From: Candidatus Levyibacteriota bacterium
GTDB taxonomy: Bacteria > Patescibacteriota > Microgenomatia > Levybacterales > UBA12049
Direction of reading: 5' to 3'
Assembly (NCBI GenBank): GCA_963716145.1
Contig: OY970292.1
Coordinates: 901,404 to 965,403, forward strand
Length of the DNA: 64,000 nt
In this document: positions 4,000 to 35,186 of the stretch, one piece after another
Layout: each line of letters begins with the position of its first letter
How positions within the stretch are numbered: the stretch's first letter is position 1
Notes under the pieces: model-generated
What the model was told of the DNA's origin: nothing
The model's database searches: none
The model's input: only the letters and a program-made list of their open reading frames with translations
Translations under genes and position numbers: made by a program

Positions 4000-4590
4000 A
4001 TGAATGAACCCATTGAGCTTCAAAATATTCGCAATATAACTGTTTCCGGCAGGATCGGTTCAGGAGCAACAACGCTTGCAAAAAGACTTTCTAAAACACT
4101 GGGGTGGGATGTGTTGGACGGGGGGAAATTATTCAGAAAAATAAACGCGGATCTTGGGATATCAATTACAGCAAGTAATAGTCGCCCTGATCATTTTGAC
4201 CTTGAATATGAAGAGAAGGTTAAAAAAACGCTAAAAGAAGAGACGCATCACATCATCCAAAGCCATTTGGCTGGTTTTGACGCTCAGGAAATCACCGGAG
4301 TTTTTAAGATTTTGGTGGTATGTGAAAATAATCAGGGACAGGACAAAACAGAAATAAGGATTGACCGGCTTGTAAATAGGGACGGAAAGGCTGTTGATGA
4401 AGCAAAAAAGGAAGTACTTGAAAGAGAAGCAGAGCATCTCAAAAAATTTCGCAGACTCTATGCAAATCATGATCAAAATTGGGTGTATTGGGATCACAAG
4501 TATTACAATTTAATTGTAAATACTTTTTCCCACAATGAAGAGGAGAGTCTGAAAATTGCACTAGAGGCAATCGGGTATAAGAATTTTTAA
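4000..4590 (+). CDS. P-loop NTP kinase, cytidylate-kinase-like (archaeal-type CMP kinase family)
   Basis: N-terminal ITVSGRIGSGATTLAKRLS Walker-A motif and an overall length of about 190 aa resemble the cytidylate kinase 2 / AAA_17 family. Confidence 0.5.
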   Translation: MNEPIELQNIRNITVSGRIGSGATTLAKRLSKTLGWDVLDGGKLFRKINADLGISITASNSRPDHFDLEYEEKVKKTLKEETHHIIQSHLAGFDAQEITGVFKILVVCENNQGQDKTEIRIDRLVNRDGKAVDEAKKEVLEREAEHLKKFRRLYANHDQNWVYWDHKYYNLIVNTFSHNEEESLKIALEAIGYKNF

Positions 4591-4610
4591 TTTTTATTTT
4601 TCAATTTTCA

Positions 4611-5192
4611 ATGAAATCACAATTTTCAATTTTAAAACATTTAAATATTAAAAATTCATTTCAAATTATTTTAGCAATAGTTTTGTTGGTATTTGGGTTT
4701 GTAGGAAGTGTTAGCGCTCAGGAAGATCTTCCTTCAGCAACTGAGTCATCGAAAGTGGATTATCAACTGTCATATCCGGGGCTTTTGCCTGATCATCCGC
4801 TTTATTTTCTGAAAGCGGCACGGGAGAGAGTGGAAGCTTTTTTTACTTCAAAACCTCTTAATAAGGCTGAATTTAATTTGCTCCAGGCAGATAAAAGAGT
4901 TCAGGCAAGTCAAATGCTTGCTGTAAAAGGAAAATTTGAATTATCTCAATCTACTTTTTCAAAAGCGGAAAACTATTTTGAAGAAGCAATTAACAATACC
5001 TTGCAAGCAAAGACTCAGGGGATTCATATTGATGAGGTTGCCAAGAAGCTTAAAGATGCCAACATAAAACACAAAGAAGTTCTTGGTAATATAGTTGATG
5101 CTTTAGATAAGAAGAATAAAAAACAATTTGTAACGGAAGCTAAGCGATTAACTGATTTTGAAAAAAAAGTGAGAGAGTTGAATCCGAATTAA
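4611..5192 (+). CDS. secreted hypothetical protein (signal peptide, helical)
   Basis: Hydrophobic signal-like segment ILAIVLLVFGFVGSVSA. The annotated N-terminus is encoded by an A/T heptamer-repeat region, so the true start may be internal. Confidence 0.4.
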   Translation: MKSQFSILKHLNIKNSFQIILAIVLLVFGFVGSVSAQEDLPSATESSKVDYQLSYPGLLPDHPLYFLKAARERVEAFFTSKPLNKAEFNLLQADKRVQASQMLAVKGKFELSQSTFSKAENYFEEAINNTLQAKTQGIHIDEVAKKLKDANIKHKEVLGNIVDALDKKNKKQFVTEAKRLTDFEKKVRELNPN

Positions 5193-5312
5193 TGGTCGTT
5201 TCGGATCATTATGTAAAACTTTTTTGAACACCATAAAGGCTCTTGTAAGAAAACGATATTAAAAAATTACTCATCCAAGGCTATTGATCTCCTTTGATAC
5301 TAAAGTTTATAG

Positions 5313-5365
5313 TTGACACCCAAGATCTAGTGGCATATGATTTTTGTGACACTAGATAACTAGAC
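5313..5365 (+). promoter_or_regulatory. sigma70-like promoter (TTGACA-17-TATGAT) overlapped by two tandem NrdR-box-like palindromes (5317..5332 CACccaagatctaGTG; 5350..5365 CACtagataactaGAC)
   Basis: Two CAC-N10-GTG/GAC 16-bp palindromes lie 33 bp apart start-to-start, overlapping the -35 and the region just downstream of the -10. This is the classic tandem NrdR box arrangement, about 100 bp upstream of nrdR-nrdJ. Confidence 0.55.
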
Positions 5366-9235: not shown

Positions 9236-10551
9236 AGAATTTAAAATTTCTAATTTCTAATTTCAAATTGCCAAAAATAATATTGTGTTTTTGCGTGCTA
9301 CTTATCACTTATCACTTATCATTTATAACCCCAGCGCATGCCGATGCGGTTATAGACAATGGGATTAATTATTTAAAACAAAAACAAGTTCCATCCGGGC
9401 AAATAGACGGTGGAGGATTTAGTGATGCTTCTCCCTGGTCGGCAATTGCATTTGAAATAAGAGATATACATATTGAAGATGTTAAGAATAGCTCCGTTTC
9501 CTTAAAAGATTTTTTCGTAAACAATGTTCCAGGTGATGCATATACGTTGGCAACTAGGATTTTAGTTATTGTCGCAGCAGGAGATGATCCGACGAACTTT
9601 GGAGGAAATAATTATGTACAAAAACTTGAAAGTTTTCATCATGATAGTCAAATAGATAATATATGCATTCTGAATGACGACCTCTTTGGATTACTTGCTC
9701 TTATATCAGCTGGAAATTCATCCGATCAGAATATAAAACAAGATACTTTAAATTTTATTATTGATCATCAAGCAATAGATGGAGGATTTAGTTATTCAGC
9801 TCCATCTACAACTTGTCCTGATTGGGGGACTGATCCTGATACCACTTCGGCTGCGATTCAGGTATTGCAAGCAGCAAAAACGAATGGGTTAACAAATCCT
9901 AAACTCGATGATTCCATAAGTATGGCAAAAGAATATCTACTTGACGATCAGGACGCCGGTGGGGGCTTTTTAGCATTTGGCTCTCCAAGTTCTGATACAA
10001 CAGGATGGGCGTTAATGGCCCTAAATGTTTTGGGTATGCAGGATTCTGAGCAAGCAGCAAAAGCGCGGACCTGGTTAGCATCTCAACAATCACAACCAGA
10101 AGGGGGCTTCTTGTCTTATGGAACTTTAAATTCAACAACTACAGCTCATGCGCTCATTGCTCTTTCCGGATCGGGCTGGTTCTATCGGCCAAGTATTCCT
10201 GTGCCGACTATTTCTGTAGTTTCACCAACGCCAACTCCTACGCCAACAACTTCATCTTCAAGCAGCAACTCATCTACTCCCACTCCAACGCCCACAAATA
10301 CTACAACCCCAACACTACAAGTTAAGAATAAGACAACTTCCGATCTTGTTTCCGATTCTTCTTTTGAAGATCCGCAACCAACTCCTGCGCCTGAAGTTTT
10401 GGGGCAATCAACACAAGAAGTAAAACCTGATATCGATAAAAAACAATTGCTGATTAAAAATTTAACCAGCGGATTTTTACCTCTTCTTTTTGGATTTGGT
10501 CTTTATGTTGTGGTAAGATTTTGGGAGAGGAGGTGGAGAAAAAATGTTTGA
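9232..10551 (+). CDS. prenyltransferase/squalene-oxidase-repeat (terpene-cyclase-like alpha/alpha toroid) surface protein with C-terminal TM anchor
   Basis: Repeated QxxDGGF/DGGW-type motifs (QIDGGGFSD, AIDGGFSYS, QDAGGGF, PEGGF), a P/T/S-rich stalk and a C-terminal hydrophobic anchor. The ATGA start overlaps the upstream stop. The signal peptide is encoded by heptamer repeats. Confidence 0.6.
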   Translation: MKNLKFLISNFKLPKIILCFCVLLITYHLSFITPAHADAVIDNGINYLKQKQVPSGQIDGGGFSDASPWSAIAFEIRDIHIEDVKNSSVSLKDFFVNNVPGDAYTLATRILVIVAAGDDPTNFGGNNYVQKLESFHHDSQIDNICILNDDLFGLLALISAGNSSDQNIKQDTLNFIIDHQAIDGGFSYSAPSTTCPDWGTDPDTTSAAIQVLQAAKTNGLTNPKLDDSISMAKEYLLDDQDAGGGFLAFGSPSSDTTGWALMALNVLGMQDSEQAAKARTWLASQQSQPEGGFLSYGTLNSTTTAHALIALSGSGWFYRPSIPVPTISVVSPTPTPTPTTSSSSSNSSTPTPTPTNTTTPTLQVKNKTTSDLVSDSSFEDPQPTPAPEVLGQSTQEVKPDIDKKQLLIKNLTSGFLPLLFGFGLYVVVRFWERRWRKNV

Positions 10552-13093: not shown

Positions 13094-15484
13094 ATGCAAG
13101 TACAATCTTTTTTAAGCCAAAATTCACTTATAATAAAGCTTTTTTTTGGTGTTTTGGGATTTGCCGCGGTAGCAGGATTTCTTATGTTGCTCTTTTATGT
13201 TTTTCTGATGTGGATAAGGCACCGCAAAAGGGAATCAGAAGCACTTAATTCAACTCTTCTTCAAGTGACAGTACCAAGGGATAATGAGATCAAAGTTGAT
13301 GCTGCTGAGCAGATGTTTTCAGCATTATATGCAATACGCAAAACCTATGAAAAGGACAGACTGTCTTTTTTCAAATCCCAGCCGCATCTTTCATTTGAAA
13401 TTGTAGGATTGCCTGGGGATATCCGTTTTTACGTCAATGTTCCAAACAATCTGCGGGATTTTGTTGAAAAACAAATTAACGGTTCATATCCTGATGCCGA
13501 AATAATTCCTGTTACTGAGCCTGCAGCTAAGCAAAGAGAGGGTGGAGTTCTGGGTACAGAATACAATATTTTTTCAAAAGATGGAAAGGTAGCTTTTGTG
13601 TCCCTTAGGCTGCACCACGCAAATCACATGCCGATAAAAGTATACAAGGATTTGGCTGTTGATTCTTTATCTTCAATCACCTCAGTCCTTGCCAAAATGG
13701 GAGAAGGCGAGGGGGCAGCTCTTCAGATTGTGATAAGTCCGGCCTCATCCAAATGGAAAAAAGAAGGTCGCAGTTTTATTGGGCACACAAAAAAGATGGA
13801 AGCAAATCCTGAGAAAGCAAGTTATAAGTCCGACGCTAAAGAGCTTGAGGCAATAGAGAGTAAAATCCAAAAACCGGGATTTGATACTGTTATCCGGATT
13901 GTGGTCTCAGCCAAAACATATCATGCTGCAAAAGCCCACAAAGATAATATAAAAGGAGCATTCAGTCAGTTTACTCTCCATAATTCCTTTCACAGGAACA
14001 AAAATTGGATTAAGGGGTGGTTCATGAATGATTTTATTTACCGTTATTTTCCAATGTGGGGACAGACTTCTGTCCTGACGAGTGAAGAATTGGCAACTAT
14101 TTATCATTTTCCAAATAAAAGTGTGTATACAACTCCCGGAATTCACTGGTTGACTGCCAAGCGAGCGCCGGCACCCTCAAATTTGCCGACAAGTGGTCTT
14201 TATCTGGGAAAGAGCAGTTATCGAGGCATATCCCGCGGAATATTTCAAGGACGCGAAGACCGTCGTCGCCACACCTATATAATCGGAAAAACAGGAACAG
14301 GAAAAACAGAAATGCTCAAAACCATGATCATGCAGGATATAAATAACGGTGAAGGACTTGCGGTTATTGATCCTCACGGAGATTTGGTTGAGGATATTCT
14401 GCGTATGATACCCCCTAAAAGGGCTGAGGAGGTTATTCTCTTTGATCCATCAGATACTGAGCGCCCGATGGGTTTTAATATGCTCTCAGCAGACACCGAG
14501 CAGCAAAAGCATTTCGTTGTAAACTCAATAATCGGTCTTATGTATAAGCTTTTCGATCCGAATAAAACCGGTATCATTGGTCCTCGTTTTGAACATGCTA
14601 TTCGTAACGCGATGCTTACAGTGATGTATGAGAAAGGGAGTACCTTTATTGAAGTTGTGCGTGTTTTGACTGACCAGGCGTTTGTTCAGGAGTTATTGCC
14701 CAAAGTTCAGGATCCGATAATCAGACGTTACTGGACAGATCAGATTGCACAAACCAGTGATTTCCACAAATCCGAGGTTTTGGATTATATTACCTCCAAA
14801 TTCGGGCGTTTTGTTACCAATAAAATGATCAGAAATATTATTGGTCAGTCTGATAGCTCTTTTGAATTCCGTAAAGTCATGGATGAGGGTAAAATTCTTC
14901 TCATCAATCTTTCCAAAGGAAAAATTGGTGAGGAAAACGCTAACTTTTTAGGATTGGTTTTGGTTCCAAAAATTTTGGTTGCTGCTATGAGCAGGCAGGA
15001 TATTCCCAATCAGGAAGACAGACGGGACTTTTTTCTCTATGTTGATGAGTTTCAGAATTTCGCAACACCGGACTTCGCCCAAATTCTCTCAGAAGCACGT
15101 AAATACCGTCTCAATTTGATTGTTGCCAATCAGTTTATCGGTCAGATGGAGGAGGAGATCAAAAATGCTATTTTTGGAAACGTAGGAACAATAGCGTCGT
15201 TTAGAGTCGGTGTAACTGATGCAAATTATCTCCAGCATGAATTCCAACCGCTATTTAATGAAAACGATCTTATCAATGTCGATAAGTATAATGCATATAT
15301 GCGGACTATTGTTAATGGTGAACCTGCTGCGCCTTTTTCGCTTGATACCACCAAAGATGTTTCCAAGGAGAAAGCCCTCCAAAACGACCGTGTTGCTGAG
15401 TTGGTTCGCGAACTCTCCCGTCTTAAGTATGGAAAGAGTGTTGAAACAGTTGAAACAGAAATTGCTACTAGAGCGAGATTATAA
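13094..15484 (+). CDS. VirB4/VirD4/HerA-FtsK superfamily P-loop ATPase with N-terminal TM segment (type IV secretion/conjugation-like)
   Basis: N-terminal TM helix. Walker A GKTGTGKT sits mid-protein, followed by a VIDPHGDL motif and a Walker B-like FFLYVDEFQNF. Length 796 aa. Confidence 0.6.
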   Translation: MQVQSFLSQNSLIIKLFFGVLGFAAVAGFLMLLFYVFLMWIRHRKRESEALNSTLLQVTVPRDNEIKVDAAEQMFSALYAIRKTYEKDRLSFFKSQPHLSFEIVGLPGDIRFYVNVPNNLRDFVEKQINGSYPDAEIIPVTEPAAKQREGGVLGTEYNIFSKDGKVAFVSLRLHHANHMPIKVYKDLAVDSLSSITSVLAKMGEGEGAALQIVISPASSKWKKEGRSFIGHTKKMEANPEKASYKSDAKELEAIESKIQKPGFDTVIRIVVSAKTYHAAKAHKDNIKGAFSQFTLHNSFHRNKNWIKGWFMNDFIYRYFPMWGQTSVLTSEELATIYHFPNKSVYTTPGIHWLTAKRAPAPSNLPTSGLYLGKSSYRGISRGIFQGREDRRRHTYIIGKTGTGKTEMLKTMIMQDINNGEGLAVIDPHGDLVEDILRMIPPKRAEEVILFDPSDTERPMGFNMLSADTEQQKHFVVNSIIGLMYKLFDPNKTGIIGPRFEHAIRNAMLTVMYEKGSTFIEVVRVLTDQAFVQELLPKVQDPIIRRYWTDQIAQTSDFHKSEVLDYITSKFGRFVTNKMIRNIIGQSDSSFEFRKVMDEGKILLINLSKGKIGEENANFLGLVLVPKILVAAMSRQDIPNQEDRRDFFLYVDEFQNFATPDFAQILSEARKYRLNLIVANQFIGQMEEEIKNAIFGNVGTIASFRVGVTDANYLQHEFQPLFNENDLINVDKYNAYMRTIVNGEPAAPFSLDTTKDVSKEKALQNDRVAELVRELSRLKYGKSVETVETEIATRARL

Positions 15485-15517: not shown

Positions 15518-15904
15518 ATGAAATTCACAGATTTAGAGATATGGAAAAAAGCTCATGAGTTAACACTTTTTGTCTATGCGGTTACTAAAAAGTTTCCCAA
15601 AGAAGAAGGGTACGGCTTGACCTCACAAATTCGTCGCGCAGCTGTTTCAGTAGAGTCATGTATCGCAGAAGGATTTGCCCGCTACCACTTTAAGGAAAGA
15701 TTAAATTTTTACTATGATGCGGGTGGGTCCTTAGCAGGAATTCAAAGCCAAACAATAACGTCGAAAGATTTATCCTATTTGTCAGATGATAACGCAAAAA
15801 AGATTTCTGATAAAGTAGATGAAGTTCAGATAATTCTGGCAGGTTTAATCCGTTCCACGCAAAATTTGGTAAAAAAGAAGAAATCTGGTATATTTACCGA
15901 ATGA
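15518..15904 (+). CDS. four-helix-bundle protein (TIGR02436 / 23S rRNA intervening-sequence protein family)
   Basis: EIWKKAHELTLFVY...KEEGYGLTSQIRRAAVSVESCIAEGFAR matches the family signature. About 128 aa. Confidence 0.7.
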   Translation: MKFTDLEIWKKAHELTLFVYAVTKKFPKEEGYGLTSQIRRAAVSVESCIAEGFARYHFKERLNFYYDAGGSLAGIQSQTITSKDLSYLSDDNAKKISDKVDEVQIILAGLIRSTQNLVKKKKSGIFTE

Positions 15905-15964
15905 TGAAGCGTAAATAGTTGCACTTTTGCGCCTTTTCTCTTTCGCGCATATGCGCTGTAGATC

Positions 15965-16037
15965 GCGTCCGTAGTTCAGTGGCTAGAACAGTTGTCTTAT
16001 ACACAACATGTCGGAGGTTCGAGTCCTCCCGGACGCA
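15965..16037 (+). tRNA. tRNA-Ile, anticodon UAU (reads AUA)
   Basis: Cloverleaf: acceptor GCGTCCG/CGGACGC, D-arm GTTC-AGTGGCTA-GAAC, anticodon stem GTTGT/ACAAC with loop CTTATAC (U33, anticodon TAT, A37), T-arm GGAGG-TTCGAGT-CCTCC, discriminator A. No encoded CCA. Confidence 0.75.
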
Positions 16038-16050
16038 CTCTGTTTGGTCT

Positions 16051-16608
16051 ATGAAATTACCACAAAACGCAAAACTGGTTTTTAAGGGAAAGATATTTGA
16101 TGTTTATCAATGGGAACAACTGCTTTATGATGGATCCGTTGCCACGTTTGAAGGGCTAAAAAGGCCGAACACAATTCAGATTATTCCAACAATAGGCGAT
16201 AAGGTCTTGTTCTCTCATGAGGAGCAGCCAAATAAGCCCCTGAGTAACACGTTTTTGGGAGGCCGTGCGGAAGAGGGCGAGGAGCCACTAGTTACAGCAA
16301 AGAGAGAACTTCTTGAAGAAACGGGTTTGGAGTCAGATGACTGGGAGCTACTGAAAATTTATGAAAATGAGGGTAAAATAGAATGGAGTATTTATTTATT
16401 CACAGCTCGCAATTGCAAAAAAGTCGCAGAACCCAATCTCGATGCAGGGGAGAAGATAGATGTAAAAGAAGTAAGTTTTGACAAGTTCCTGGACATTGTT
16501 TCATCAGAAAAATTCTGGGGACGGGATATAGCAAATGATATTTTGAGAATGAGGCTGGATAGTAAAAAAATTGAAGAATTTAAGAAAAAATTATCAATTA
16601 AAACTTAG
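16051..16608 (+). CDS. NUDIX hydrolase
   Basis: Nudix box GGRAEEGEEPLVTAKRELLEETG. The start is trimmed to the Met after the tRNA; the 6-frame ORF 15919.. overlaps the tRNA. Confidence 0.7.
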   Translation: MKLPQNAKLVFKGKIFDVYQWEQLLYDGSVATFEGLKRPNTIQIIPTIGDKVLFSHEEQPNKPLSNTFLGGRAEEGEEPLVTAKRELLEETGLESDDWELLKIYENEGKIEWSIYLFTARNCKKVAEPNLDAGEKIDVKEVSFDKFLDIVSSEKFWGRDIANDILRMRLDSKKIEEFKKKLSIKT

Positions 16609-21133: not shown

Positions 21134-21317
21134 GCGATGCTGAAAGTATATCAATTGACCGTAGCTAAATCAAATGTTATACTAGTAAGCACAATGTTGG
21201 CAAAATCAACGGATTTTGAAACAAGACGCGGGGTAGTGTACGGTGCACGTGAGGCTCATAATCTTACAGATAAGGTTCAACTCCTTACCCCGCAACAAAA
21301 ATAACTTGCTTCCAACT

Positions 21318-21686
21318 ATGCGTGATTTTTTTGATAAAATTTCAAATAAGGTCTCAAGAGCAATGGGTACTCCATGGTCTTTCTTCGTTGCAATATCTGT
21401 AATAATTATCTGGGCAATTTCAGGCCCACTTTTTCATTTTTCAGACACATGGCAATTGGTTATCAATACCGGAACAACGATTGTCACATTTTTGATGGTT
21501 TTTCTCATTCAAAATAGTCAGAATAGAGACTCAGAATCAATGGAGCTGAAATTGAACGAGATTATACGAGCAATCAGAGAGGCAAGAAATGATTTTATTG
21601 ATCTGGAGGAAATGTCCGAGGACCAGATGGATAAATTTCAAGAAGAGTTCCGGCAACTTGCCAAAAAAAGACTTAAGATAAAATAA
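21318..21686 (+). CDS. small membrane protein, low-affinity iron permease (Fet4-like) family candidate
   Basis: About 120 aa with 2 TM helices and LVINTGTTIVTFLMVFLIQNSQNRD, followed by a charged coiled C-terminus. The start is moved to the internal Met because the longer ORF overlaps the tRNA-like element. Confidence 0.45.
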   Translation: MRDFFDKISNKVSRAMGTPWSFFVAISVIIIWAISGPLFHFSDTWQLVINTGTTIVTFLMVFLIQNSQNRDSESMELKLNEIIRAIREARNDFIDLEEMSEDQMDKFQEEFRQLAKKRLKIK

Positions 21687-22506: not shown

Positions 22507-23873
22507 TTAATGATTTAAAGAATAAAAAAATTGCAATACTGGGACTTGGGGTTGAGGGAATATCAGTTATTGAATATCTGTATAAAAAAGGAATTAGTGT
22601 TATTGTATTAGATATAAAGACAAAGGAAGAATTTGATGCGGAAATTCTGGATAAAGCAAAAGAATTCAAAGCAGATCTCATTCTGGGTAGAAATTATCTT
22701 GAAAACCTTTCAAGGTTTGATATTGTCTTTAGAACACCCGGAATTAGACTGGATATCGTAGAGAGTGCAATAAAACAAAAAGAAACCGTTATCACATCTC
22801 TGACAAAACTCTTTTTTGAGCTTTGTCCATGTCCAATTATCGGTGTGACAGGAACAAAAGGAAAAGGAACTACGGCTAGCTTGATATATGAAATGTTGAA
22901 AGAGGCAGGAAGAGATGTTTACTTGGGTGGAAATATTGGTACCCCGCCTTTAGATTTTTTGGATAAGTTGGACAAAGATTCAATCGTTGTTCTTGAGTTA
23001 TCAAGTTTTCAGCTTCAGGATTTGGGTAAAAGTCCTCATATTGCGGTAATGCTGATGACAACCAGTGAGCACCTGGATCACCATAAAGACACTTTAGAAT
23101 ACGTTGATGCAAAGCGAAATATTTTGAGGTTTCAAAATTCATCGGATTTCGCGATTGTAAATCGGGATTACCCGGCAAGTAACGAATCAGACATCTATTC
23201 CGATGGGAAAGTTTTTTATGTGTCGCGCGAGAGAGCCGGTCAGAGCGGTTCATTTATCCGGGATGAGGTAATGTGGATGCAGACTGACGGGAATGAAAAG
23301 AAAATTATTGACATCAAAGACATTCTTCTTCCGGGAAAGCATAATTTGGAAAACGCAGCAGCCGCTTCTCTGGCAGCTCATTTAGAAGGAGTTGGGCGGG
23401 AACAAATCGTAAGGGTGTTAAAATCTTTCAAAGGTCTGGAGCATCGCTTGGAGTTAATTAGAGAAGTAGAGGGGGTCAAGTATTATGACGATTCTTTTTC
23501 TACCACTCCCGAAACAGCAATTGCCGCGATTGAGGCCTTTTCCGAGCCTGAAATTCTGATCTTGGGAGGGTCGAGCAAGAATAGTGATTTTACAGAGCTT
23601 GGAAAAGTGATAAGTAACGCCAAAAATATAAAAGCAATTATAGGGATTGGGGATGAATGGCATCGCATGAAAGCGGAATTTCCAATTTCCAATTTCCAAT
23701 TTCCAATTATTGAAGACGCAAGAGATATGAAGACAATTGTTTTGGCAGCAAGTAAAATTGCCGCGCCCGGGGACGTAGTTTTGCTATCTCCAGCGTGTGC
23801 TAGCTTTGGGATGTTCGAAAATTACAAAGACCGTGGGGAGCAGTTCAAAAAAGAAGTTTTAATGCTGTCTTGA
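22503..23873 (+). CDS. murD: UDP-N-acetylmuramoylalanine--D-glutamate ligase, with in-frame heptamer-repeat insertion (EFPISNFQFPI)
   Basis: N-terminal Rossmann motif IAILGLGVEGIS and Mur ligase P-loop GVTGTKGKGTT. The start overlaps the murI stop. 4.5 copies of AATTTCC lie at 23677..23708. Confidence 0.85.
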   Translation: MINDLKNKKIAILGLGVEGISVIEYLYKKGISVIVLDIKTKEEFDAEILDKAKEFKADLILGRNYLENLSRFDIVFRTPGIRLDIVESAIKQKETVITSLTKLFFELCPCPIIGVTGTKGKGTTASLIYEMLKEAGRDVYLGGNIGTPPLDFLDKLDKDSIVVLELSSFQLQDLGKSPHIAVMLMTTSEHLDHHKDTLEYVDAKRNILRFQNSSDFAIVNRDYPASNESDIYSDGKVFYVSRERAGQSGSFIRDEVMWMQTDGNEKKIIDIKDILLPGKHNLENAAAASLAAHLEGVGREQIVRVLKSFKGLEHRLELIREVEGVKYYDDSFSTTPETAIAAIEAFSEPEILILGGSSKNSDFTELGKVISNAKNIKAIIGIGDEWHRMKAEFPISNFQFPIIEDARDMKTIVLAASKIAAPGDVVLLSPACASFGMFENYKDRGEQFKKEVLMLS

Positions 23874-27438: not shown

Positions 27439-28603
27439 GAGTAGCCATTGTTCATGATTATATAAAAGAGTATGGAGGCGCGGAGCGTGTGCTCGAAACA
27501 TTATTGGAAATTTATCCTGATGCTGATGTTTATACTTCTCTTTATGCGCCGGAATTTTTGGCCCGCATAGAAGTAGATTTGAAAAATACAATATTAAAAC
27601 AACCTTTCTTAACCACATTCCCTTTCGTCATAAATTGATTTCTCCACTTAGGCTTTTATCTCCACTAGCGTTTTATAGTTTAGACTTATCAAATTATGAT
27701 GTGGTGGTTGTTTCTCAAACTGGTGCGTATTTTCCCAACATAGTTGGAGAGAGAATTAAGAAGGAAGAATTAAGAATTAAGGACGGAAAGAAGCCGGTTT
27801 TGATTTGTTACACACATACGCCACCGCGTTATCTTTATGGATACGCGACTGCGAGAGATTGGAAGAAGCATAAATCGTTTGCGGCTGTCGCGGAAATAGC
27901 AAATCACTTTTTGCGGATGACTGATTATAATTCTTCAAAAAATGTTGATTTTTTTATAGCGAATTCTGAGGAGATAGCGGGGCGGATTAAGAAATTTTAT
28001 AGAAGAGATGCCACCGTTATCTACCCTCCGGTAGATAACGCAATTTCAAATTTCAAATTTCAAATTACAAATAAGAATAAAAAAAATTATTTTTTGACTG
28101 GGGGGCGTTTGGCGAGGGCGAAGGGAATTGATGTGATTGTGAAGGCGTTTAATGAGAATGGGTTGCCTCTTAAGATATTTGGGAAAGGATTTGCAGGATA
28201 CCAGGAAGAGCTCAAAAAAGAAGTAAGAAGTAAGAATCAAGAATCAAGGATAGAGTTTTTGTGGGAGGTAACAGATAAGGAAAAGCTGGAGTTGATGAGA
28301 AATGCAAAAGCTTTTATTTTCGCGTCGTATGACGAGGATTTCGGTATAACACCCGTTGAAAGTATGAGTGTCGGGACGCCTATTATTGCATTCAGAAGTG
28401 GGGGGGTTAAAGAAACTGTCGTTGACGGAAAAACAGGATTATTCTTTGAGGAAAATACACCTGAAGCGTTAAATGCTGCCGTTAAAAGTTTTGAAAAGTT
28501 AAAACTTGATCCGAAAGATTGCATAAAACAAGCGGAAAAGTTTTCTTCAGCGCGATTTAAAAAAGAGATAAAAGAATTTGTTAATTCGAAAGTAAAAAAA
28601 TAA
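27435..28603 (+). CDS. GT4-family glycosyltransferase, apparent frameshift near 27585-27635 in an A-rich run; in-frame heptamer repeats
   Basis: ORF 27435..27638 (MRVAIVHDYIKEYGGAERVLE, the GT4 N-terminus) and ORF 27635..28603 (…EDFGITPVESMSVGTPIIA, the E(x7)E region) belong to one protein. Frame 2 reads …TFLNHIPFRHKLISPL upstream of 27635 with no stop. Repeats AATTTCA x4 at 28042..28072 and AGTAAGA/ATCAAGA at 28218..28247. Confidence 0.7.
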
Positions 28604-28604
28604 T

Positions 28605-29459
28605 ATGCCAGAACTACCTGAAGTAGAAACTATTAGATTAGGACTGCAGAGATATCTCATTGGACACAAAATTGTTGACGTTGATGTGAGTTTGATAAGA
28701 ATATTTTCTGGCGACACCAAAAAAATTATCGGCGGAAAAGTTGTTGCTGTCAGGCGGTTTGGTAAAGGTTTGTTAATTGATTTGGATAATGATTACAGCA
28801 TTGCGGTACACGTAAAAATGACAGGCCAACTCCTCTATAGAAAAGTATCAAAAGAAGAAAAAGTATCAAAGGTATCAAATGTCAAGGTTGATGTCGGGAA
28901 ATTACCGGATGTTTATACACATGTTGTTTTCAGATTGGATAAAGATGCAACTCTTTTCTACCGCGATATGCGGCAATTCGGGTGGGTGAAAATTATTAAG
29001 ACCAAAGATGCAGTTGAGATGCCATTCTTCAAATCACTTGGACCTGAACCGCTTAAGGATTTGGATTTAAAAAAGTTTCAGGCGATAATTTCCAAAAATA
29101 AAACAAATATAAAAGTTCTACTTATGGATCAGAAGAAAATTTCTGGGATTGGAAATATTTACGCAAATGACGCTCTTTTTGTCGCAGGAATTGACCCCCG
29201 CCGCTACAGCGCCTCACTTACTCAGAAAGAACAAGTAAAATTATTTAAAGCAATAGAGCAAGTATTGAAAAAAGGTCTTGAAGCAGGTGGGGCAAGTGAG
29301 TGGCATTATGTTGATGCATTGGGTGGTTCAGGTAATTATCAAAATTTTTTTCAAGTTTATAATAAAAAAGGAAAATCCTGCAAAAATTGTGGAAGCATAA
29401 TAGAAAAAATTACACTAGGTGGACGAGGCACCTTCTTTTGTCCCCAATGCCAGAATTAA
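28605..29459 (+). CDS. mutM: formamidopyrimidine-DNA glycosylase
   Basis: N-terminal MPELPEVE with catalytic Pro2/Glu3, an H2TH region, and a C-terminal zinc finger CKNCGS...CPQCQ. Contains a KVSK-type repeat insertion. Confidence 0.85.
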   Translation: MPELPEVETIRLGLQRYLIGHKIVDVDVSLIRIFSGDTKKIIGGKVVAVRRFGKGLLIDLDNDYSIAVHVKMTGQLLYRKVSKEEKVSKVSNVKVDVGKLPDVYTHVVFRLDKDATLFYRDMRQFGWVKIIKTKDAVEMPFFKSLGPEPLKDLDLKKFQAIISKNKTNIKVLLMDQKKISGIGNIYANDALFVAGIDPRRYSASLTQKEQVKLFKAIEQVLKKGLEAGGASEWHYVDALGGSGNYQNFFQVYNKKGKSCKNCGSIIEKITLGGRGTFFCPQCQN

Positions 29460-29516: not shown

Positions 29517-30227
29517 ATGGGTAATAAGAACAGTCGTAAACGGATTATTATTTCAGTCGGAGGATCCCTCATCGTCCCTCAGGATGGAATCGGTATTGAT
29601 TTTCTCAAACAGCTCAATGCCTTCATAAGAGAAAAGCTGGCAGAGGATCCAACCCGCCAGTTTTTTTTAGTTACAGGCGGTGGAACTACGGCAAGACATT
29701 ATATTGATGCAGGCCAGCAAGTAATAGAGCACCAGTTATCAAGGGATGATTTGGATTGGCTGGGAATTCACTCAAGTCGGCTTAACGCCCATCTCGTCAG
29801 GACAATTTTCCGCGATATCGCTCATCCATATATCGTAAAAAACTTTGATATTATCAGAAAAGCTGAAGAGTCTGTGGTGGTTGCTGCGGGCTGGAAGCCT
29901 GGTTGGTCAACTGATTATTGTGCGGTTTTGATTGGAGAAGATTATGGAGTTGAAACCGTACTTAATTTAAGTAATATTTCCGAAGTCTACGATAAAGATC
30001 CGAATAAATTTAAAGATGCAAAACCTTATAAAAAAATGGACTGGGACGAATTTAGAAAACTAGTGGGGGACGAATGGACGCCAGGAATGAATACTCCTTT
30101 TGATCCGATTGCTGCTAAAAAAGCTCAAGAAATGGGGATAAAAGTGGTAATTATGTCGGGAACAGATTTTGATAATCTTGAAAAGTATTTTAAAGGTGAA
30201 GATTTTGTGGGAACAACAATAGAGTAA
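29517..30227 (+). CDS. pyrH: uridylate (UMP) kinase, amino-acid-kinase family
   Basis: RIIISVGGSLIV ... LVTGGGTTARHY; about 236 aa, typical of the archaeal-type UMP kinase fold. Confidence 0.65.
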   Translation: MGNKNSRKRIIISVGGSLIVPQDGIGIDFLKQLNAFIREKLAEDPTRQFFLVTGGGTTARHYIDAGQQVIEHQLSRDDLDWLGIHSSRLNAHLVRTIFRDIAHPYIVKNFDIIRKAEESVVVAAGWKPGWSTDYCAVLIGEDYGVETVLNLSNISEVYDKDPNKFKDAKPYKKMDWDEFRKLVGDEWTPGMNTPFDPIAAKKAQEMGIKVVIMSGTDFDNLEKYFKGEDFVGTTIE

Positions 30228-30346
30228 TTTTCAATTTTCAATTTGAAGTTTTCAATGAGATTGTAATTTACAATGTTTAAAACATTAAAAATTTAATCAT
30301 TTAAAATTCATTTCAAATTGTAAATTTTAAATTTCAAATTAAGTGA

Positions 30347-31426
30347 ATGATATTAAAGCATCTCTCTCTTCAAAATTTCAGAAATTATACTAAATCCGAG
30401 TTTAGTTTTAGTCCTAGGACAACTATAATCATTGGGCCAAACGCAATTGGAAAATCAAATATTCTCGAGGCAATATATCTCCTGTCCACAGGAAAGAGTT
30501 TTCGGACGGATAAAGACAAACAGATCTTAAAATTTGGTCAAAGTAATTGTCGGGTAAAAGGTTTGATTGAGGGGGAAAAAGAGACAGACGAGACAAAGGA
30601 GACAAATGAGCTAGAGGTAGTTTTGGTAGAATCATCTACCGAATTCTTGCAAAAAAAGTATTCGGCCAATGGAGTTTCTAAGAGCAGAATAAATTTTGCA
30701 ACTAAGATGCCAGTGGTTCTGTTTACTCCAATGGACCTGGATCTGGTAGCAGGGCAGCCAGGAACCAGACGCAAATTTTTGGATGAAGTACTTACGCAGA
30801 TTGATCCAGAATATCACCAAGCACACATTGCATATATTAAAGCTTTAAGACAGAGAAACGCTCTTCTCCAGCAAGCACAAGAGAGAGGACAAAGAGATGA
30901 TAAGCTTTTTGCTTATTGGGATGAACTGCTTATTAGAAACGGGCAAAGTATTTCAAAAAAACGCACTGAATTAATTGAATACATAAATAAAACAAAAAAA
31001 GAAATTTTTGAATTTGATTTGAAGTATGACCGGAGTGAAATTTCTAAAGAGAGACTCATACAGTATAAAAATGCAGAAGTTGGTGCAGGAGTTACGTTGG
31101 TCGGACCGCACAGAGATGACGTATTGATAAAAGCCAAAAATAAACTTTCGAAAAATTCTGAGGAGGTAAGATACTTTGGTTCACGCGGTCAGCAAAGGCT
31201 TGTCGCGCTTGAGCTAAAACTTTCGCAGATTGCAATTATTAAAGAAAAGACAGAAAATGAACCAATACTTTTGTTGGACGATGTTTTTTCAGAGTTAGAT
31301 AGCAGCAATATTTCGCATGTGTTAAATTTAATGAATATTTATCAAACAATCGCGACAACAACCCATGAAGAATTTATAGGAAAACATGAATTAAAAAATT
31401 TAGAAATGATAAGATTGGGAAAGTAA
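30347..31426 (+). CDS. recF: DNA replication and repair protein RecF
   Basis: LSLQNFRNY...IIIGPNAIGKSNILEAI Walker A; C-terminal signature/D-loop region. In-frame 9-mer repeat (ETDETKETN) at 30581..30610. Confidence 0.85.
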   Translation: MILKHLSLQNFRNYTKSEFSFSPRTTIIIGPNAIGKSNILEAIYLLSTGKSFRTDKDKQILKFGQSNCRVKGLIEGEKETDETKETNELEVVLVESSTEFLQKKYSANGVSKSRINFATKMPVVLFTPMDLDLVAGQPGTRRKFLDEVLTQIDPEYHQAHIAYIKALRQRNALLQQAQERGQRDDKLFAYWDELLIRNGQSISKKRTELIEYINKTKKEIFEFDLKYDRSEISKERLIQYKNAEVGAGVTLVGPHRDDVLIKAKNKLSKNSEEVRYFGSRGQQRLVALELKLSQIAIIKEKTENEPILLLDDVFSELDSSNISHVLNLMNIYQTIATTTHEEFIGKHELKNLEMIRLGK

Positions 31427-31480
31427 ACTAATTTTCAATTCTAAATTTTCAATTTTCATTGAAATCTAAATATTAAAATT

Positions 31481-32335
31481 ATGAATAAATTTAATCCGCA
31501 AGATTTAAAGCAATTATATGCTCCCCCAGTAGATTCGCATAAAGGAGAGAATGGTAAACTGATTCTAATTGGAGGATCTCACTTATTTCATGCCGCATCT
31601 TTATGGGCATTAACCATTGCTTCAAAAATTGTGGATATGGTTTTTTATTCATCTGTTGATGAGAATAATGAGATTGTCTTGAGAGCAAAAGAAGAATTTC
31701 GAAACGGTATAGTTGTGCCCAGAGGCAAGGTTGAAAACTATATTGAAGAAGCAGATTGTGTATTAATAGGTCCCGGTTTGCCAAGAAAAGAAGGGGAGGA
31801 AATTGGCGATGATGATACTAAAGAATTAACAGAAAGACTATTTGCAAAATTTCCTGATAAGAAATGGGTTATTGATGGAGGTTCATTACAAGTTGTTGCT
31901 CCTGAAGCATTACCCAAGAACTCAATTATTACACCGCATTTAGGCGAGTTTGAAAAATTAAAACTCAAAATGCAAAACTCAAAACTTAAGATTGCAATGC
32001 AAAACTCAAAATTGGAAGAACAGGTCCAAATTTTTGCGAAAGAATACGGATTGATAGTTTTGCTCAAAGGTCAAAAAGACTTTATTTGCTCTACGGATAA
32101 ATGCGCACTGGTTTCAGGAGGGAATGCGGGTATGACCAAGGGAGGGACAGGGGACGTGTTATCCGGTCTGGTCGCGGCTTTAGCTTGTAAAAATAATTTA
32201 TTTCTAGCGGCCTCAGCAGGGTCTTGCATAAATAAAAAAGCTGGAGAAAGTTTATTTGAAAAAGTAGGATATAACTTTAATGCATCAGATCTGGTAGATG
32301 AGATACCGGTGGTAATGAAAAATTTGCTTGCATAA
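31481..32335 (+). CDS. ADP-dependent NAD(P)H-hydrate dehydratase (YjeF C-terminal / carbohydrate-kinase-like)
   Basis: KGENGKLILIGGS...; GGNAGMTKGGTGDVLSGLVAALA signature. Contains the repeat insertion KLKMQNSKLKIAMQNSKL. Confidence 0.7.
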   Translation: MNKFNPQDLKQLYAPPVDSHKGENGKLILIGGSHLFHAASLWALTIASKIVDMVFYSSVDENNEIVLRAKEEFRNGIVVPRGKVENYIEEADCVLIGPGLPRKEGEEIGDDDTKELTERLFAKFPDKKWVIDGGSLQVVAPEALPKNSIITPHLGEFEKLKLKMQNSKLKIAMQNSKLEEQVQIFAKEYGLIVLLKGQKDFICSTDKCALVSGGNAGMTKGGTGDVLSGLVAALACKNNLFLAASAGSCINKKAGESLFEKVGYNFNASDLVDEIPVVMKNLLA

Positions 32336-32380
32336 TTATTTGTTGCCAAAATTCGGGAAATATGCGAGAATTAAATCCTC

Positions 32381-33433
32381 ATGTATACTCCAAAATTTAC
32401 AATCTCCAACAAAATTCTCAAAAATATAGGCATAATTGAAGCATGTAAAGAAGTTATAGATCATGCACCTCTTTTGCCTTTTTATGAAAAAGAATTCCGC
32501 AAAGATGCACTGACCAGAGCAGTTCATTATGGTACACACATTGAAGGAAATGAGCTAGATCTAAGTCAAGCTGAGAAAGTCATGATGGGTGAAGAAGTCG
32601 CCGCTCGTGATCGGGATATTCAGGAAGTAATCAATTATAGAAAAGTAATGGAGCGGATTGGAGAATCAAGAATTAGAAATCAAAAAGAAGGAATTAATGA
32701 AGAGTTTATTTTGGAGTTACATAAAATGACTGTTGAAAAAATCTTATCAGCTGAGAGGTGCGGAGTTTATCGATCTACGCAGGTGGTTGTTAAAAACAGT
32801 CTGACTGGGGAAGTTACCTTTCGTCCTCCGCTTCCAATTGCAGTTCCCATTCAAGTGAAAGAATTGATCGAATTCATGAATCAGTCAGGAGATGTCCATC
32901 CGGTTCTAAAATCCGGCACAGTTCACTATGAACTAGCAAGAATTCATCCCTTTGTTGATGGAAACGGGAGAGTCGCACGGGCACTCTCTACCTATATTCT
33001 CTTTCAGGAAGAATATGATATCCGGAAATTTTTTTCACTTGAGGAGTACTTTGACCGGGATGCTGCCCGTTATTATGATTCTCTTCAAAGCGTTGCCAGA
33101 TCGGATGGAGATTTATCAATTTGGCTTGAATATTTTACACAAGGTCTTGCAATTGAGCTTTCAAAAATAAAAAATAAAATTGAGAAAATATCCATTGACG
33201 CTGGACTTAAGCAAAAGCTGGGCGGTGCCCCGCTGCTTTTGTCAGATAGGCAGCTTAAAATAATAGAGTATATTCAGAAAACAGGATTTTTGCAAAACCA
33301 GGCATTTTTAAGCCTTTTTCCAATGGTGTCAGAGGATACAGTTTTGAATGAAATAAAATCGTTATTGAAAGCAGGTATAATAAAAAAATCCGGAAAAACA
33401 AAAGGCGCTAAATACATAATGGCGACGAAATGA
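32381..33433 (+). CDS. Fic/DOC family protein (AMPylase-type) with C-terminal winged-helix domain
   Basis: Fic motif HPFVDGNGRVARAL; about 350 aa. Confidence 0.8.
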   Translation: MYTPKFTISNKILKNIGIIEACKEVIDHAPLLPFYEKEFRKDALTRAVHYGTHIEGNELDLSQAEKVMMGEEVAARDRDIQEVINYRKVMERIGESRIRNQKEGINEEFILELHKMTVEKILSAERCGVYRSTQVVVKNSLTGEVTFRPPLPIAVPIQVKELIEFMNQSGDVHPVLKSGTVHYELARIHPFVDGNGRVARALSTYILFQEEYDIRKFFSLEEYFDRDAARYYDSLQSVARSDGDLSIWLEYFTQGLAIELSKIKNKIEKISIDAGLKQKLGGAPLLLSDRQLKIIEYIQKTGFLQNQAFLSLFPMVSEDTVLNEIKSLLKAGIIKKSGKTKGAKYIMATK

Positions 33434-33434
33434 T

Positions 33435-35186
33435 ATGAAATTTTCAGAACTTGCAAATTATTTTGAAAAATTGGAAGAGACTTCCTCACGCTTAGTACTT
33501 ATTGATATTTTAGCCGACTTGTTTAAGCATACGGATAAAGAGGAGATTGAGAAGATAATTTATCTGACGCAGGGGAGAATCGCGCCGTTTTTTGCGCCGG
33601 TTGAAATAGGAATGGCGGATAAAACAATTGCTGACGCTCTAGCTCGGGCGTTTGAACAAAAGAAAGATTACGTTTTGCAATTATACGGCAAAGTTGGAGA
33701 CATGGGATTAGTCGCACAGCAATTGAGCTCAAAGTTCAAATTGCAAAGTTCAAAGTTAAAGGTTGAGGACGTTTTTAAGATCTTAACTGAAATTGCCGGG
33801 ACGTCTGGTGCCGGGACTGTTGAGAAAAGGATAACACTTCTTTCTGATTTGTTGAAAAAAGTAGATCCGATTTCGGCTAAGCATCTGGTCCGCGTTCCTC
33901 TTGGTAAAACACGTCTCGGTATTGGTGACCCGACAATTCTTGACGCACTTGCGCTTGCGATATTAGGCGACCGTGGCAAAAGAAAACTTTTGGAAAAAGC
34001 GTATAACGAAACATCAGATTTGGGTTTAATCGGGAAAACGCTTAAAAAAGAAGGTTTGGCAAAAGTCCAAAAGTTAACAGTCACGGTTGGCAGGCCGATC
34101 AGATCAGAACTTTGCGAACGTTTGCCAAATCCTGAAAAGGTTTTTTCTAAAATGGGTGATAAGGTTCATGCCACTCCGAAGTATGATGGTTTTCGTGTCC
34201 AAATCCATAAAGACGGAGATAGGGTCTCAATGTTTTCCCGCAACCTTGAAGATATGACGCATATGTTTCCTGAGCTCATTAAGGGAACTCTTGACCAGGT
34301 AAAAGCTAAGACTGCAATTCTTGATACAGAAGCTCTTGCCTATCAACCGGAATCCGAAGAATTTTTACCGTTTCAGGAAACGACCAAGAGACGCAGAAAA
34401 CACGGAATTGAAGATATGGTGCTGGCTTTACCGCTGAGGGCTTTTGTTTTTGATATTCTCTACGTCGATGGGAAGTCGCTAATTGATACCCCGCTTCATA
34501 AACGGATAGAAATGCTAAAAAAAATCGTTGAGAAAGGCGATACGCTACTTTCGGCTCCAGGTGATATTCTAGACAAACCGGAAAAACTGCAACTGATGCT
34601 TGATGACTCGATTTCAAAAGGTCTTGAAGGCGTAGTTGTCAAAAAAATTGATTCTCTGTATGAAGCGGGAGGGCGCAACTTTAATTGGGTTAAATTGAAG
34701 CGTCATTCATCAGGAGAACTTCATGACACTATCGATACTGTAATTTTGGGATATATTTTCGGCAAAGGAAAAAGAACGGCATTTGGCGCGGGAGCATTAT
34801 TGGTTGGAATTTACGATAAAAAGAATGACGAATTTGTGACAGTCAGCAAAATCGGGACCGGACTAACAGATGAAGAGTGGAGAAGTATCAAACAAAAAAC
34901 AAAAGGAGCAGAACTATCGCACAAGCCGGCGCGGGTTAATTCTCTGATTACTCCAAGCGTTTGGGTCAGGCCTGAAATTGTGATTGAAGTCCTGGCTGAT
35001 GAGATCACAAGAAGTCCTTTGCATACGGCGGGTTCTGCAAAGCAGAATTCAGAAAGACAGAAAGAACCCGGCTACGCATTAAGGTTTCCCCGTTTGGTAA
35101 ATTTCCGGGATAAAGACAAGAAGGCAGAAGATGCTACTACAGTAGACGAACTTATAAAGATGTTTGAACAACAAGGAAAACAATAA
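33435..35186 (+). CDS. lig: ATP-dependent DNA ligase (LigI/archaeal-eukaryotic type)
   Basis: Adenylation motif I KYDGFRVQIH, plus downstream nucleotidyltransferase and OB-domain motifs; 583 aa. Repeat insertion SKFKLQSSKLK. Confidence 0.85.
   Translation: MKFSELANYFEKLEETSSRLVLIDILADLFKHTDKEEIEKIIYLTQGRIAPFFAPVEIGMADKTIADALARAFEQKKDYVLQLYGKVGDMGLVAQQLSSKFKLQSSKLKVEDVFKILTEIAGTSGAGTVEKRITLLSDLLKKVDPISAKHLVRVPLGKTRLGIGDPTILDALALAILGDRGKRKLLEKAYNETSDLGLIGKTLKKEGLAKVQKLTVTVGRPIRSELCERLPNPEKVFSKMGDKVHATPKYDGFRVQIHKDGDRVSMFSRNLEDMTHMFPELIKGTLDQVKAKTAILDTEALAYQPESEEFLPFQETTKRRRKHGIEDMVLALPLRAFVFDILYVDGKSLIDTPLHKRIEMLKKIVEKGDTLLSAPGDILDKPEKLQLMLDDSISKGLEGVVVKKIDSLYEAGGRNFNWVKLKRHSSGELHDTIDTVILGYIFGKGKRTAFGAGALLVGIYDKKNDEFVTVSKIGTGLTDEEWRSIKQKTKGAELSHKPARVNSLITPSVWVRPEIVIEVLADEITRSPLHTAGSAKQNSERQKEPGYALRFPRLVNFRDKDKKAEDATTVDELIKMFEQQGKQ

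Follow-up and report, generated by a model that had tools for sequence, protein, structure and literature searches.

How does a short, A+T-rich heptanucleotide come to stand in tandem both in the spacers and within the conserved genes of one bacterium, and by what process are such arrays maintained? The question is raised by a 64,000-nucleotide stretch from a Candidatus Levyibacteriota bacterium (assembly GCA_963716145.1, contig OY970292.1, forward-strand positions 901,404 to 965,403), which is referred to below, at its full length, as the window. It has a G+C content of 38.5%, is ~93% coding and carries genes mostly on the plus strand, and its MurD and its ATP-dependent DNA ligase find their best protein matches in uncultured Patescibacteria, several of them named Levybacteria. 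A preliminary description of this DNA had taken the arrays for selected or recently expanded in-frame insertions into the loops of essential proteins, analogous in effect to the palindromic elements of Rickettsia. The evidence assembled here favours another origin, with a probability of roughly 0.6, namely that the arrays are slippage-type heptanucleotide simple-sequence repeats (SSRs; periods of 6-9 nt) that have been filtered by selection, and not a mobile element.

An excess of seven-nucleotide arrays

The arrays first reported are all present within a few bases of where they had been placed, both by Tandem Repeats Finder (TRF) and on reading the sequence (Table 1), and the view that they are non-random is borne out by a period-7 excess in all three tests that were applied. 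Exact period-7 arrays of at least 2.5 copies number 9 in the window against 0.25 in dinucleotide shuffles, and self-match windows at the 18/21 level occur six times at period 7 and 0-1 times at each other period from 4 to 15. TRF finds 19 arrays of period 7 against a mean of 1.4 in 30 shuffles, together with smaller excesses at period 8 (13 vs 2.1), period 9 (11 vs 2.0) and period 6 (5 vs 0.8) and none at period 10 (1 vs 3.0). The shuffles are thereby exceeded 14-36 times at period 7, as against about 5-6 times at periods 6, 8 and 9; 7 nt is the commonest unit length in the window and dominates in related loci of the Candidate Phyla Radiation (CPR). The period-7 TRF rows are unevenly spread, with 17 in positions 1-35000 and 6 in 35000-64000, for which chance or gene content is a possible reason.

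The units are strongly biased as well. Those of the form AATTT[CT]N make up ~1% of sense-strand 7-mers and 7 of the 14 arrays (binomial P ~2e-11), so that the shared unit family of the preliminary description stands. Copies per array range from 2 to 5 and are non-integer. Nine of the 14 arrays lie in frame within genes, and the remaining five are at least partly non-coding, in DNA of which only 7% is non-coding, so that spacers and gene ends hold more than their share; all five spacer arrays have the same orientation as the genes that flank them. The range originally given for the family, 4584-33770, proved too narrow, as further arrays lie outside it at 3898-3928, 40304-40342 and 57627-57684. 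The arrays described as intergenic leaders are also present in spacers (4582-4612, 30226-30256, 30310-30340 and 31430-31458), with the correction that 4611-4670 is probably coding, since the heptamer-like sequence there runs past 4612 into the N-terminal codons of a DUF5667 protein (to ~4670). Pfam confirms the genes named as MurD, family 4 glycosyltransferase (GT4), Fpg/MutM, amino-acid kinase, RecF, NAD(P)HX dehydratase, ATP-dependent ligase and TsaD; the prenyltransferase-like protein has only a weak match, under the curated cut-off.

Table 1. Tandem arrays of the window, with TRF coordinates in brackets where they differ
Array	Position	Strand	Context
TTTTCCA/TCTGCCA, period 7 and 14	3898..3928	+	directly after the TGA stop at 3896-3898; TRF and sequence
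AATTTTY x4.4	4582..4612	+	covers last codons and stop of gene 4000-4590 and the whole spacer to ATG 4611
AATTTCT/AATTTCA x3.6	9238..9271 (9245-9269)	+	N-terminus NLKFLISNFKL of weakly prenyltransferase-like secreted protein, ATG 9232
CTTATCA x3.9 (TRF ACTTATC)	9298..9328 (9300-9326)	+	hydrophobic LLITYHLSFI, N-terminus of prenyltransferase-like protein
AATTTCC x4.6, 100% matches	23675..23710 (23677-23708)	+	murD residues 391-402, AEFPISNFQFPI, helix-strand loop of C-terminal domain
AAGAAGG/AAGAATT	27752..27781	+	KKEELRIK, first variable loop of GT4
AATTTCA x4.4	28040..28074 (28042-28072)	+	AISNFKFQITN, between two Pfam domains of GT4
AAGAAGT x2.7 + AAGAATC x2.4	28214..28252 (28218-28248)	+	KKEVRSKNQESRI in GT4
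9-mer AAAAGTATC x4.3	28841..28886 (28841-28879)	+	KVSKEEKVSKVS in fpg/mutM
TTTTCAA x4.4	30224..30256 (30226-30256)	+	begins at TAA stop of amino-acid-kinase gene
AAATTNT x4.4	30310..30341 (30310-30340)	+	ends 5 nt before recF ATG 30347; homologous in L081
9-mer GAGACARRN x3.8	30577..30610	+	EKETDETKETNE in recF
AATTTTC x4.1	31430..31458	+	54-nt spacer from recF to NAD(P)HX dehydratase gene
AAAAYTCA/AAAATGC heptamers (TRF 27-mer x2.2, also 7-mer x3.9)	31954..32013	+	NAD(P)HX dehydratase gene (nnrD)
TCAAAGT x4.9	33729..33764 (33729-33761)	+	SKFKLQSSKLK, N-terminal domain of ATP-dependent DNA ligase
degenerate TAACTGA-like, period 7	40304..40342	-	inside minus-strand gene 40055-40720
AGCAAAG and AAGCCAT/AAGCAAT (sense-strand reading)	57627..57684	-	IAESKEQIGKPYAISHKQY in tsaD

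Within genes, the arrays pass a stop-codon filter. Every coding array that reaches 3.5 or more near-perfect copies, whether in the window or in its relatives, is built from units that are stop-free in three frames (AATTTCC, AATTTCA, AAAATCA, AAATCTC, AAGAATC and AAAAAGC), and units that contain a stop when read cyclically (AATTTCT, AAGAAGT, AAGAATT, AAGCAAT and AAGCCAT) reach 3 copies at most. The unit families are the same in minus-strand genes such as tsaD, where they again have the sense orientation, and those of the window's tsaD are also found in plus-strand genes of relatives. The near-perfect coding arrays are uniform in size (27-32 nt). Among the metagenome loci introduced below, 43 of 62 (AATTTCC)n arrays in long open frames measure 30-34 nt, against 4 of 21 outside such frames (Fisher P 8e-5). 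Such a length is what 21 nt added to a single unit and its chance extension (9-12 nt) would give, and a cluster there is expected if only 21-nt steps are viable. The recurrent shape of the units, (T/G)C followed by an A/T run, may be explained in similar terms, because passing from a T run to an A run without forming TAA or TGA essentially needs a C. The preliminary description had reasoned that a 7-nt unit keeps the frame only in multiples of three copies and that every coding instance is frame-neutral, which spoke in its view against random slippage. A three-unit rule agrees with the 30-34-nt cluster as a limit on the lengths that survive, though not with copy numbers that run from 2 to 5 and are non-integer; as an argument about mechanism, frame neutrality is survivorship and says nothing of how the arrays arose.

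Conserved sites and replaced units

Whether the arrays are insertions can be judged from orthologs. Syntenic loci were taken from six related genomes (L081, L083, L085, L086/L091, L089 and L090), whose proteins are 64-88% identical to those of the window. In MurD, the array-encoded segment, with the helix 'EWxRIKxx' on one side and the strand 'hhED/G' on the other, keeps the window's length in orthologs with few exceptions (24, then 120 sequences; 58-77% identity), the alignment with solved MurDs (3lk7, 7sir) spans it with just a 3-residue gap, and the more distant MurDs of CPR, Saccharibacteria and Clostridia have a loop of equal or greater length. Of 70 ligase orthologs (72-88% identity), nearly all likewise have the segment SSKFKLQSSKL at an equal length. 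Equivalent residues, which the preliminary description had itself named as a refutation, being present in both families, the claim of insertion into loops fails for MurD and the ligase, and it is upheld for nnrD only, where the array amounts to 12 extra residues relative to one relative, L081. The three repeat-bearing loops of GT4 differ in length among relatives. The accompanying claim, that arrays occupy spacers and the variable, tolerant parts of conserved proteins, fares better: in an AlphaFold model of MurD (mean pLDDT 81.7) residues 392-402 form a loop that joins helix 385-392 to strand 402-403 and has a block pLDDT of 67, and one of the GT4 arrays lies in the linker between two Pfam domains.

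What the orthologous sites share is a period, and what they exchange is the unit. The MurD loop is built from AATTTCC in the window and L081, from AAAATCA in L085 and L086, from AAATCTC in L089 and L090, and from a decayed array in L083; the DNA of the loop aligns column for column with zero length differences, and each substitution is repeated in every unit. Replacement of the unit outright is seen at 87-92% identity, and two MurDs of a single 90%-identity cluster have wholly different repeat-coded loops, VSNFKSQIL and IKNQKSNIL (the window's own MurD is the only member of its 90% cluster). Among the 120 orthologs the loop is mostly I-x-N-x-K-S-x-I-L, which corresponds to a degenerate (ATCNNAA)3, and because most of the loops fit this pattern the MurD array is probably old and repeatedly re-homogenised. 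The GT4 linker, AATTTCA in the window, is of a TCAGTGG type (period 7), a G-rich period-7 type or AGCGCAAA (period 8) in relatives; the first variable loop of GT4 differs in length, with AAGAATT and GCCATAA arrays in L085, and the array at 28214..28252 is conserved in L081 and L085 and is 5 residues shorter in L083. The Fpg loop carries period-9 arrays of different units in all four genomes compared, and the array loop of recF is hypervariable. In nnrD, the AAAAYTC array of the window is matched by (AAAATCA) x4.5 at the corresponding site of L091 and by nothing in L081, and the spacer that follows the stop codon of the kinase gene upstream of recF is of ATTTTCA type in the window, L081 and L086 and of ATTTTCC type in L083. 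The peptide KSKIKNQKSK, encoded by AAAATCA, recurs in MurD and ligase loops across different genomes, and GCCATCTGCCAT, which is related to the 16-mer TTTTCCATCTGCCATT of the window discussed below, occurs in a GT4 coding loop of L085 (18976-19000). Arrays that stay at fixed sites and keep their period as their units are replaced appear, from these alignments, to be a case of concerted evolution without length change. Since relatives at 64-88% identity carry arrays at matching sites, the terms 'recently expanded' and 'lineage-specific' do not suit them.

Beyond the syntenic block, a profile search of contigs with the MurD alignment returned, among the matches listed, mostly distant MurDs (≤51% identity), and these served as a control set of Clostridia, Saccharibacteria and other CPR bacteria. 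Period-7 arrays per 100 kb number 21.9 in the window, 17.2 in three close relatives and 13.2 in six other CPR loci, against 0.7 in fifteen Saccharibacteria loci and 1.8 in 24 Clostridia loci, and periods other than 7 contribute 0-6 arrays per 100 kb in all groups. A high density is thus common to the non-Saccharibacteria CPR loci and is found neither in the Saccharibacteria nor in the Clostridia. A metagenome scan for (AATTTCC)3 returned at least 120 stretches, on at least 120 contigs, of which 80 loci were taken (L096-L175). Their G+C content spans 28-64%, and on some of the G+C-rich contigs among the matches listed the A+T-rich tract is conspicuous. Among the loci taken, (AATTTCC)n occurs on either strand and in each of the three reading frames (NFQFPIS-type peptides), with 3 or 4 perfect copies and one case of 6, and the 80 loci hold 20-29 further period-7 arrays per 100 kb with the seed array excluded. 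Contigs with (AATTTCC)n therefore seem generally heptamer-rich, as would fit a genome-wide property, and the phenomenon appears to be confined neither to the source genome nor to CPR.

A probable slippage origin and the rival explanations

If the arrays are slippage-type SSRs, they would arise and be re-homogenised by out-of-register copying between neighbouring units, which could take the form of replication slippage or template switching, possibly with conversion between arrays. Purifying selection would then set the sites at which they survive, such as short spacers, gene ends, signal-peptide regions, surface loops and linkers. In coding DNA each unit would be read in three frames, so that only sense-oriented, stop-free units could exceed ~3 copies, and the viable net length changes would be multiples of 21 nt, or none. 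In an A+T-rich genome the stop filter would leave mostly units of the '(T/G)C then A/T run' shape, and much of the family resemblance could follow from this. What the data show is the excess at period 7, the bias in units, the conserved sites with changing units, the stop-codon filter and the sense orientation; how the copying takes place, and why at 7 nt, is inferred.

Several observations weigh against this origin. Copy number does not change at four A+T-rich arrays that could be compared between relatives' strains of 95-100% identity, so the arrays are not hypermutable on that timescale, and the suggestion of protein length polymorphism in the preliminary description finds no support in the same result; the pairs L081/L082, L083/L084 and L086/L088 and the set L091-L095, at 99.98-100% identity, carry little polymorphism information. 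Homogenisation at constant length in an essential gene is awkward for slippage in steps of 7 nt, because each single step is a frameshift, and no MurD with an intermediate of 7 additional residues occurs among the 120 orthologs. The preference for AATTT[CT]N is also seen in spacers, where the stop-codon filter is absent, and the array between the kinase gene and recF, conserved in four genomes, could indicate a function. The comparison covers 64 kb of the source genome and one syntenic block from relatives.

Some of these difficulties touch on a different proposal, in which these CPR lineages have an active and partly sequence-directed process that rewrites tolerant sites with perfectly periodic ~30-nt tracts of a genome-preferred heptamer, whether by templated patch synthesis or by conversion from one dispersed array to another. 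We consider it quite unlikely. If true, it would mean that loops and spacers turn over even in essential genes at constant protein length, which would be a previously undescribed behaviour in ultra-small genomes; the in-frame 21-nt G+C-rich palindromes of relatives, described below, possibly behave in a related way.

It is also conceivable that a small mobile or insertional element writes blocks of 21-32 nt in frame into tolerant sites, much as Rickettsia palindromic elements do. The 12-residue insertion in nnrD relative to L081 and the varying GT4 loops point in this direction, as do the uniform 27-32 nt of the coding arrays and the 30-34 nt of (AATTTCC)n, which is found even in contigs of 50-64% G+C. 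The 16-mer TTTTCCATCTGCCATT (window 3913-3928) has an exact copy in L083 (20223-20238), in a non-orthologous spacer, and both copies lie within heptamer arrays that start right after a stop codon. Moreover, relatives do possess a true G+C-rich palindrome of 21 nt, which some strains carry in frame and other, near-identical ones lack; that palindrome, however, is not in the window. The A+T-rich arrays themselves have no common consensus, with units that change from one locus to another and among orthologous sites, the segments in MurD and the ligase are no insertions, palindromy is absent, with folding z-scores that are not significant (+0.86 to -2.35), and close strains show no presence/absence polymorphism of A+T-rich arrays. 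A mobile element is for these reasons improbable. Rickettsia palindromic elements run to ~100-150 bp, are palindromic, have a consensus in common and, compared with orthologs, are genuine insertions. Both they and the window's arrays are repetitive DNA that encodes extra or unusual peptides in conserved genes and is tolerated in loops, but in length, palindromy, consensus and insertion status the arrays do not match them, and the analogy drawn in the preliminary description is accordingly given up.

The spacer arrays of AATTTTC type could instead be functional cis-elements, either A/U-rich translation leaders that lack structure or targets of a protein that binds RNA or DNA, with the coding arrays as by-products of one sequence preference; a proposal made for the TAACTGA repeats of Beggiatoaceae offers a precedent (PMC4679880). 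The arrays at 3898, 4582, 30224 and 30310 abut or span start and stop codons, orientation is shared with the flanking genes throughout, the unit preference is strong, the transcripts are predicted to be unstructured, and the post-stop ATTTTCA array is kept in the window, L081 and L086, with ATTTTCC in L083. Set against this are the small number of spacer arrays (just five, so that orientation alone is not significant), the many window spacers, indeed most of them, that have no array, and the presence of the same units in numerous coding loops with no relation to one another, in which they could not serve as leaders. No binding protein was identified. A promoter and terminator scan gave fewer sites in 30150-31550 than in shuffles, an Rfam scan of the window returned four tRNAs and nothing else, and no significant structure emerged when five arrays and spacers were folded, on which ground RNA structure was rejected as an explanation. 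A cis-regulatory origin is thus unlikely. Still less can be said for adaptive contingency loci, in which selection would keep mutable repeats for fast variation of loops or of expression, and which we regard as very improbable. The two unlike loops within one 90%-identity MurD cluster and the siting of arrays in exposed loops and N-termini would suit them, and SSRs near gene ends are, in the literature as cited in PMC4692102, a known hallmark of phase variation. The hosts, however, are cytoplasmic housekeeping enzymes (MurD, ligase, RecF, Fpg and TsaD) that have nothing obvious to gain from variation, copy numbers do not differ between strains of 95-100% identity, arrays of ≤5 copies are far below typical phase-variable tracts, and the one frameshift of the window (GT4, ~27560) falls in a G run outside the heptamer arrays. 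Hardly credible, finally, is the view that base composition, codon usage or low-complexity protein segments gave rise to the pattern, or that it is an artefact of assembly. The genome is indeed A+T-rich, several units are among its commoner stop-free 7-mers, and the GT4 frameshift hints at possible homopolymer errors. Dinucleotide-preserving shuffles, though, yield 0.25-1.4 arrays where 9-19 are observed, equally A+T-rich Clostridia loci, as well as Saccharibacteria loci, have no period-7 excess, and perfect nucleotide identity over units read in three frames cannot stem from selection on the protein. Arrays also recur, at orthologous sites, in independent NCBI, JGI, ENA and Logan assemblies, which disposes of the artefact that had been named as a possible refutation.

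The slippage-type reading finds its closest precedent in the long SSRs surveyed by Mrázek et al. (2007), who, as reported in PMC4679880 and PMC4692102, found heptanucleotides to be the commonest class of 5-11-nt SSRs in SSR-rich bacteria, mainly in large and often G+C-rich genomes (Burkholderia, Xanthomonas, cyanobacteria and actinobacteria), and proposed polymerase slippage with a contact of ~7 nt. Those repeats and the present ones share short units placed head to tail, most commonly of 7 nt, a lineage-restricted and genome-wide occurrence, a proposed origin in slippage and an excess within non-coding DNA (5/14 vs 7% here), yet most arrays of the window are coding. The host differs too, being a CPR bacterium with a genome of ~1.1 Mb and 38.5% G+C, and so does the presentation, with 93% coding DNA, 9 of 14 arrays in frame, essential genes included, and only 2-5 copies. 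The Patescibacteria/Levybacteria-like host is a new lineage for a known kind of repeat, and its coding-dominated presentation is unusual.

Genome-specific dominant heptamers are known from Calothrix/Nostoc, Xanthomonas and Beggiatoaceae (PMC4679880, PMC4692102). Among them, the short tandemly repeated repetitive (STRR) heptamers of the heterocystous cyanobacteria Calothrix and Nostoc, whose existence is cited in PMC4692102, resemble the present arrays: they too are scattered heptamers in tandem, among which a few units specific to the genome dominate. They differ in unit and in phylum, and are mainly intergenic and often longer. Their units are CCCCAGT, TTGGTCA and CAACAGT; those of the window are AATTT[CT]N, AAGAATY, AAAAYTC and others, in a Patescibacteria/Levybacteria-like host, and membership was rejected. 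The TAACTGA repeats of marine Beggiatoaceae, some Cyanobacteria and Bacteroidetes, of unknown function (MacGregor 2015, PMC4679880), form arrays of 2-6 copies with one dominant unit per genome, many of them in forward orientation just upstream of start codons, a feature that the AATTTTC-type arrays at 4582 and 30310 partly match. TAACTGA, however, contains stop codons and is mostly intergenic, unlike the mostly coding AATTT[CT]N arrays, and the window has one degenerate TAACTGA-like array (40304-40342), inside a gene, so that membership was rejected here as well. The G-quadruplex-forming GGGNATC heptamers of Xanthomonas and Nostoc (Rehm et al. 2015, PMC4692102) likewise prefer about four units and lie near the ends of open reading frames (ORFs), but the window's units have 0-2 G/C and no G3 tract. 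A G-quadruplex or i-motif was rejected as the cause of the roughly four-unit size, given that units without GG/CC are equal in size and that arrays outside open frames differ; for the mode of ~4.5 copies, which is seen in coding contexts only, the 21-nt frame rule is the better explanation. The phase-variable loci of Haemophilus, Neisseria and Campylobacter, in turn, are long, usually of 1-5-nt units and hypervariable, and switch surface genes on and off by frameshift. They have in common with the window short tandem repeats in or beside genes and slippage as the mutational mechanism, but here the arrays are short, identical in near-identical strains of relatives and placed in housekeeping genes.

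Neighbouring features and meaning for CPR genomes

The palindrome of the relatives is a repeat in its own right. It is a G+C-rich sequence of ~21 nt, CCTGCCTnnCGGCAGnCAGG, with the perfect form CCTGCCTGCCGGCAGGCAGG, and lies in L086 at 14219-14239 (ftsH), 15838-15873 (5'-3' exonuclease) and 20484-20504 (a spacer), in L089 at 10390-10410 (murD) and in L065 at 166-185. Strains 95-99.6% identical differ in whether they have it, as an exact 21-nt in-frame block of 7 residues (e.g., LPDGRQG), and it seems in these comparisons to behave like a tiny mobile or insertional element; a search for it in the window was negative. Other short G+C-rich in-frame inserts occur in the variable loops of the relatives' MurD, ligase and RecF (for recF, L081 19238-19276), for instance THSASSGQA / THSAGSGQA, PADVKAMAGK / SADAEAMAGK, PLRQGSVGQA, PARNATQSVAGG and SSFAKATEE, and PASQRGE is a 7-residue strain polymorphism. 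One or more additional families of small repeats may be represented here. In the window itself, G+C-rich islands were sought, and just ordinary conserved coding segments turned up.

Other repeats of the window include the minus-strand array at 40304-40342, whose units ATAACTG, ATAACAA, TAACCGA, TAACTTA and TAACTAA are antisense in the gene and which encodes FSYKLSVIVISYL, and period-8 arrays (AATAATCC / AAATAATC) at 43719-43756 and 44118-44190. The latter, together with 44170-44190, makes up an inverted repeat, AAATAATCCAAT ... ATTGGATTATTT, situated between the end of gene 43695-44123 and a tRNA (44216-44286), and this is maybe a hairpin built from repeats. The GT4 gene is split in its 5' part (27440-27640) by a single-base frameshift near 27555-27565, where the window has TTTTTGGCCCGC and orthologs encode EFLGPHR, as fits a G run that has lost one G; ~45 codons at the N-terminus (MRVAIVHDYIKEYGG...) have a different frame. 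The frameshift, which could be a sequencing error, the mark of a pseudogene or real, is unconnected to any heptamer array. Two ORFs overlap tRNAs: that at 15919-16608 (TTG start) meets a high-scoring tRNA at 15965-16037, so that its 5' part is probably non-coding, and that at 21243-21686 (GTG start) overlaps the tRNA at 21227-21295 (+). The other tRNAs of the window lie at 21061-21133 (-) and 44216-44286 (+). Relatives carry a protein of the bAvd / 23S-rRNA-IVP family beside a TraG/VirD4-like gene (L083 2011-2382, L084 252-623); bAvd is an accessory protein of diversity-generating retroelements.

In the literature searched, no paper was found that links Patescibacteria with heptanucleotide repeats. 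With these arrays, CPR joins a short and scattered list of bacterial groups that are rich in such repeats, and it offers a clean natural system in which to ask why the unit is 7 nt and how arrays homogenise if slippage by a single unit is lethal. Repeat-coded peptides, such as NFQFPIS, KIKNQKS, KNQESRI and the like, explain many of the odd low-complexity loops of CPR proteins, and they are best handled by aligners, annotators and structure predictors as neutral filler and not as motifs.

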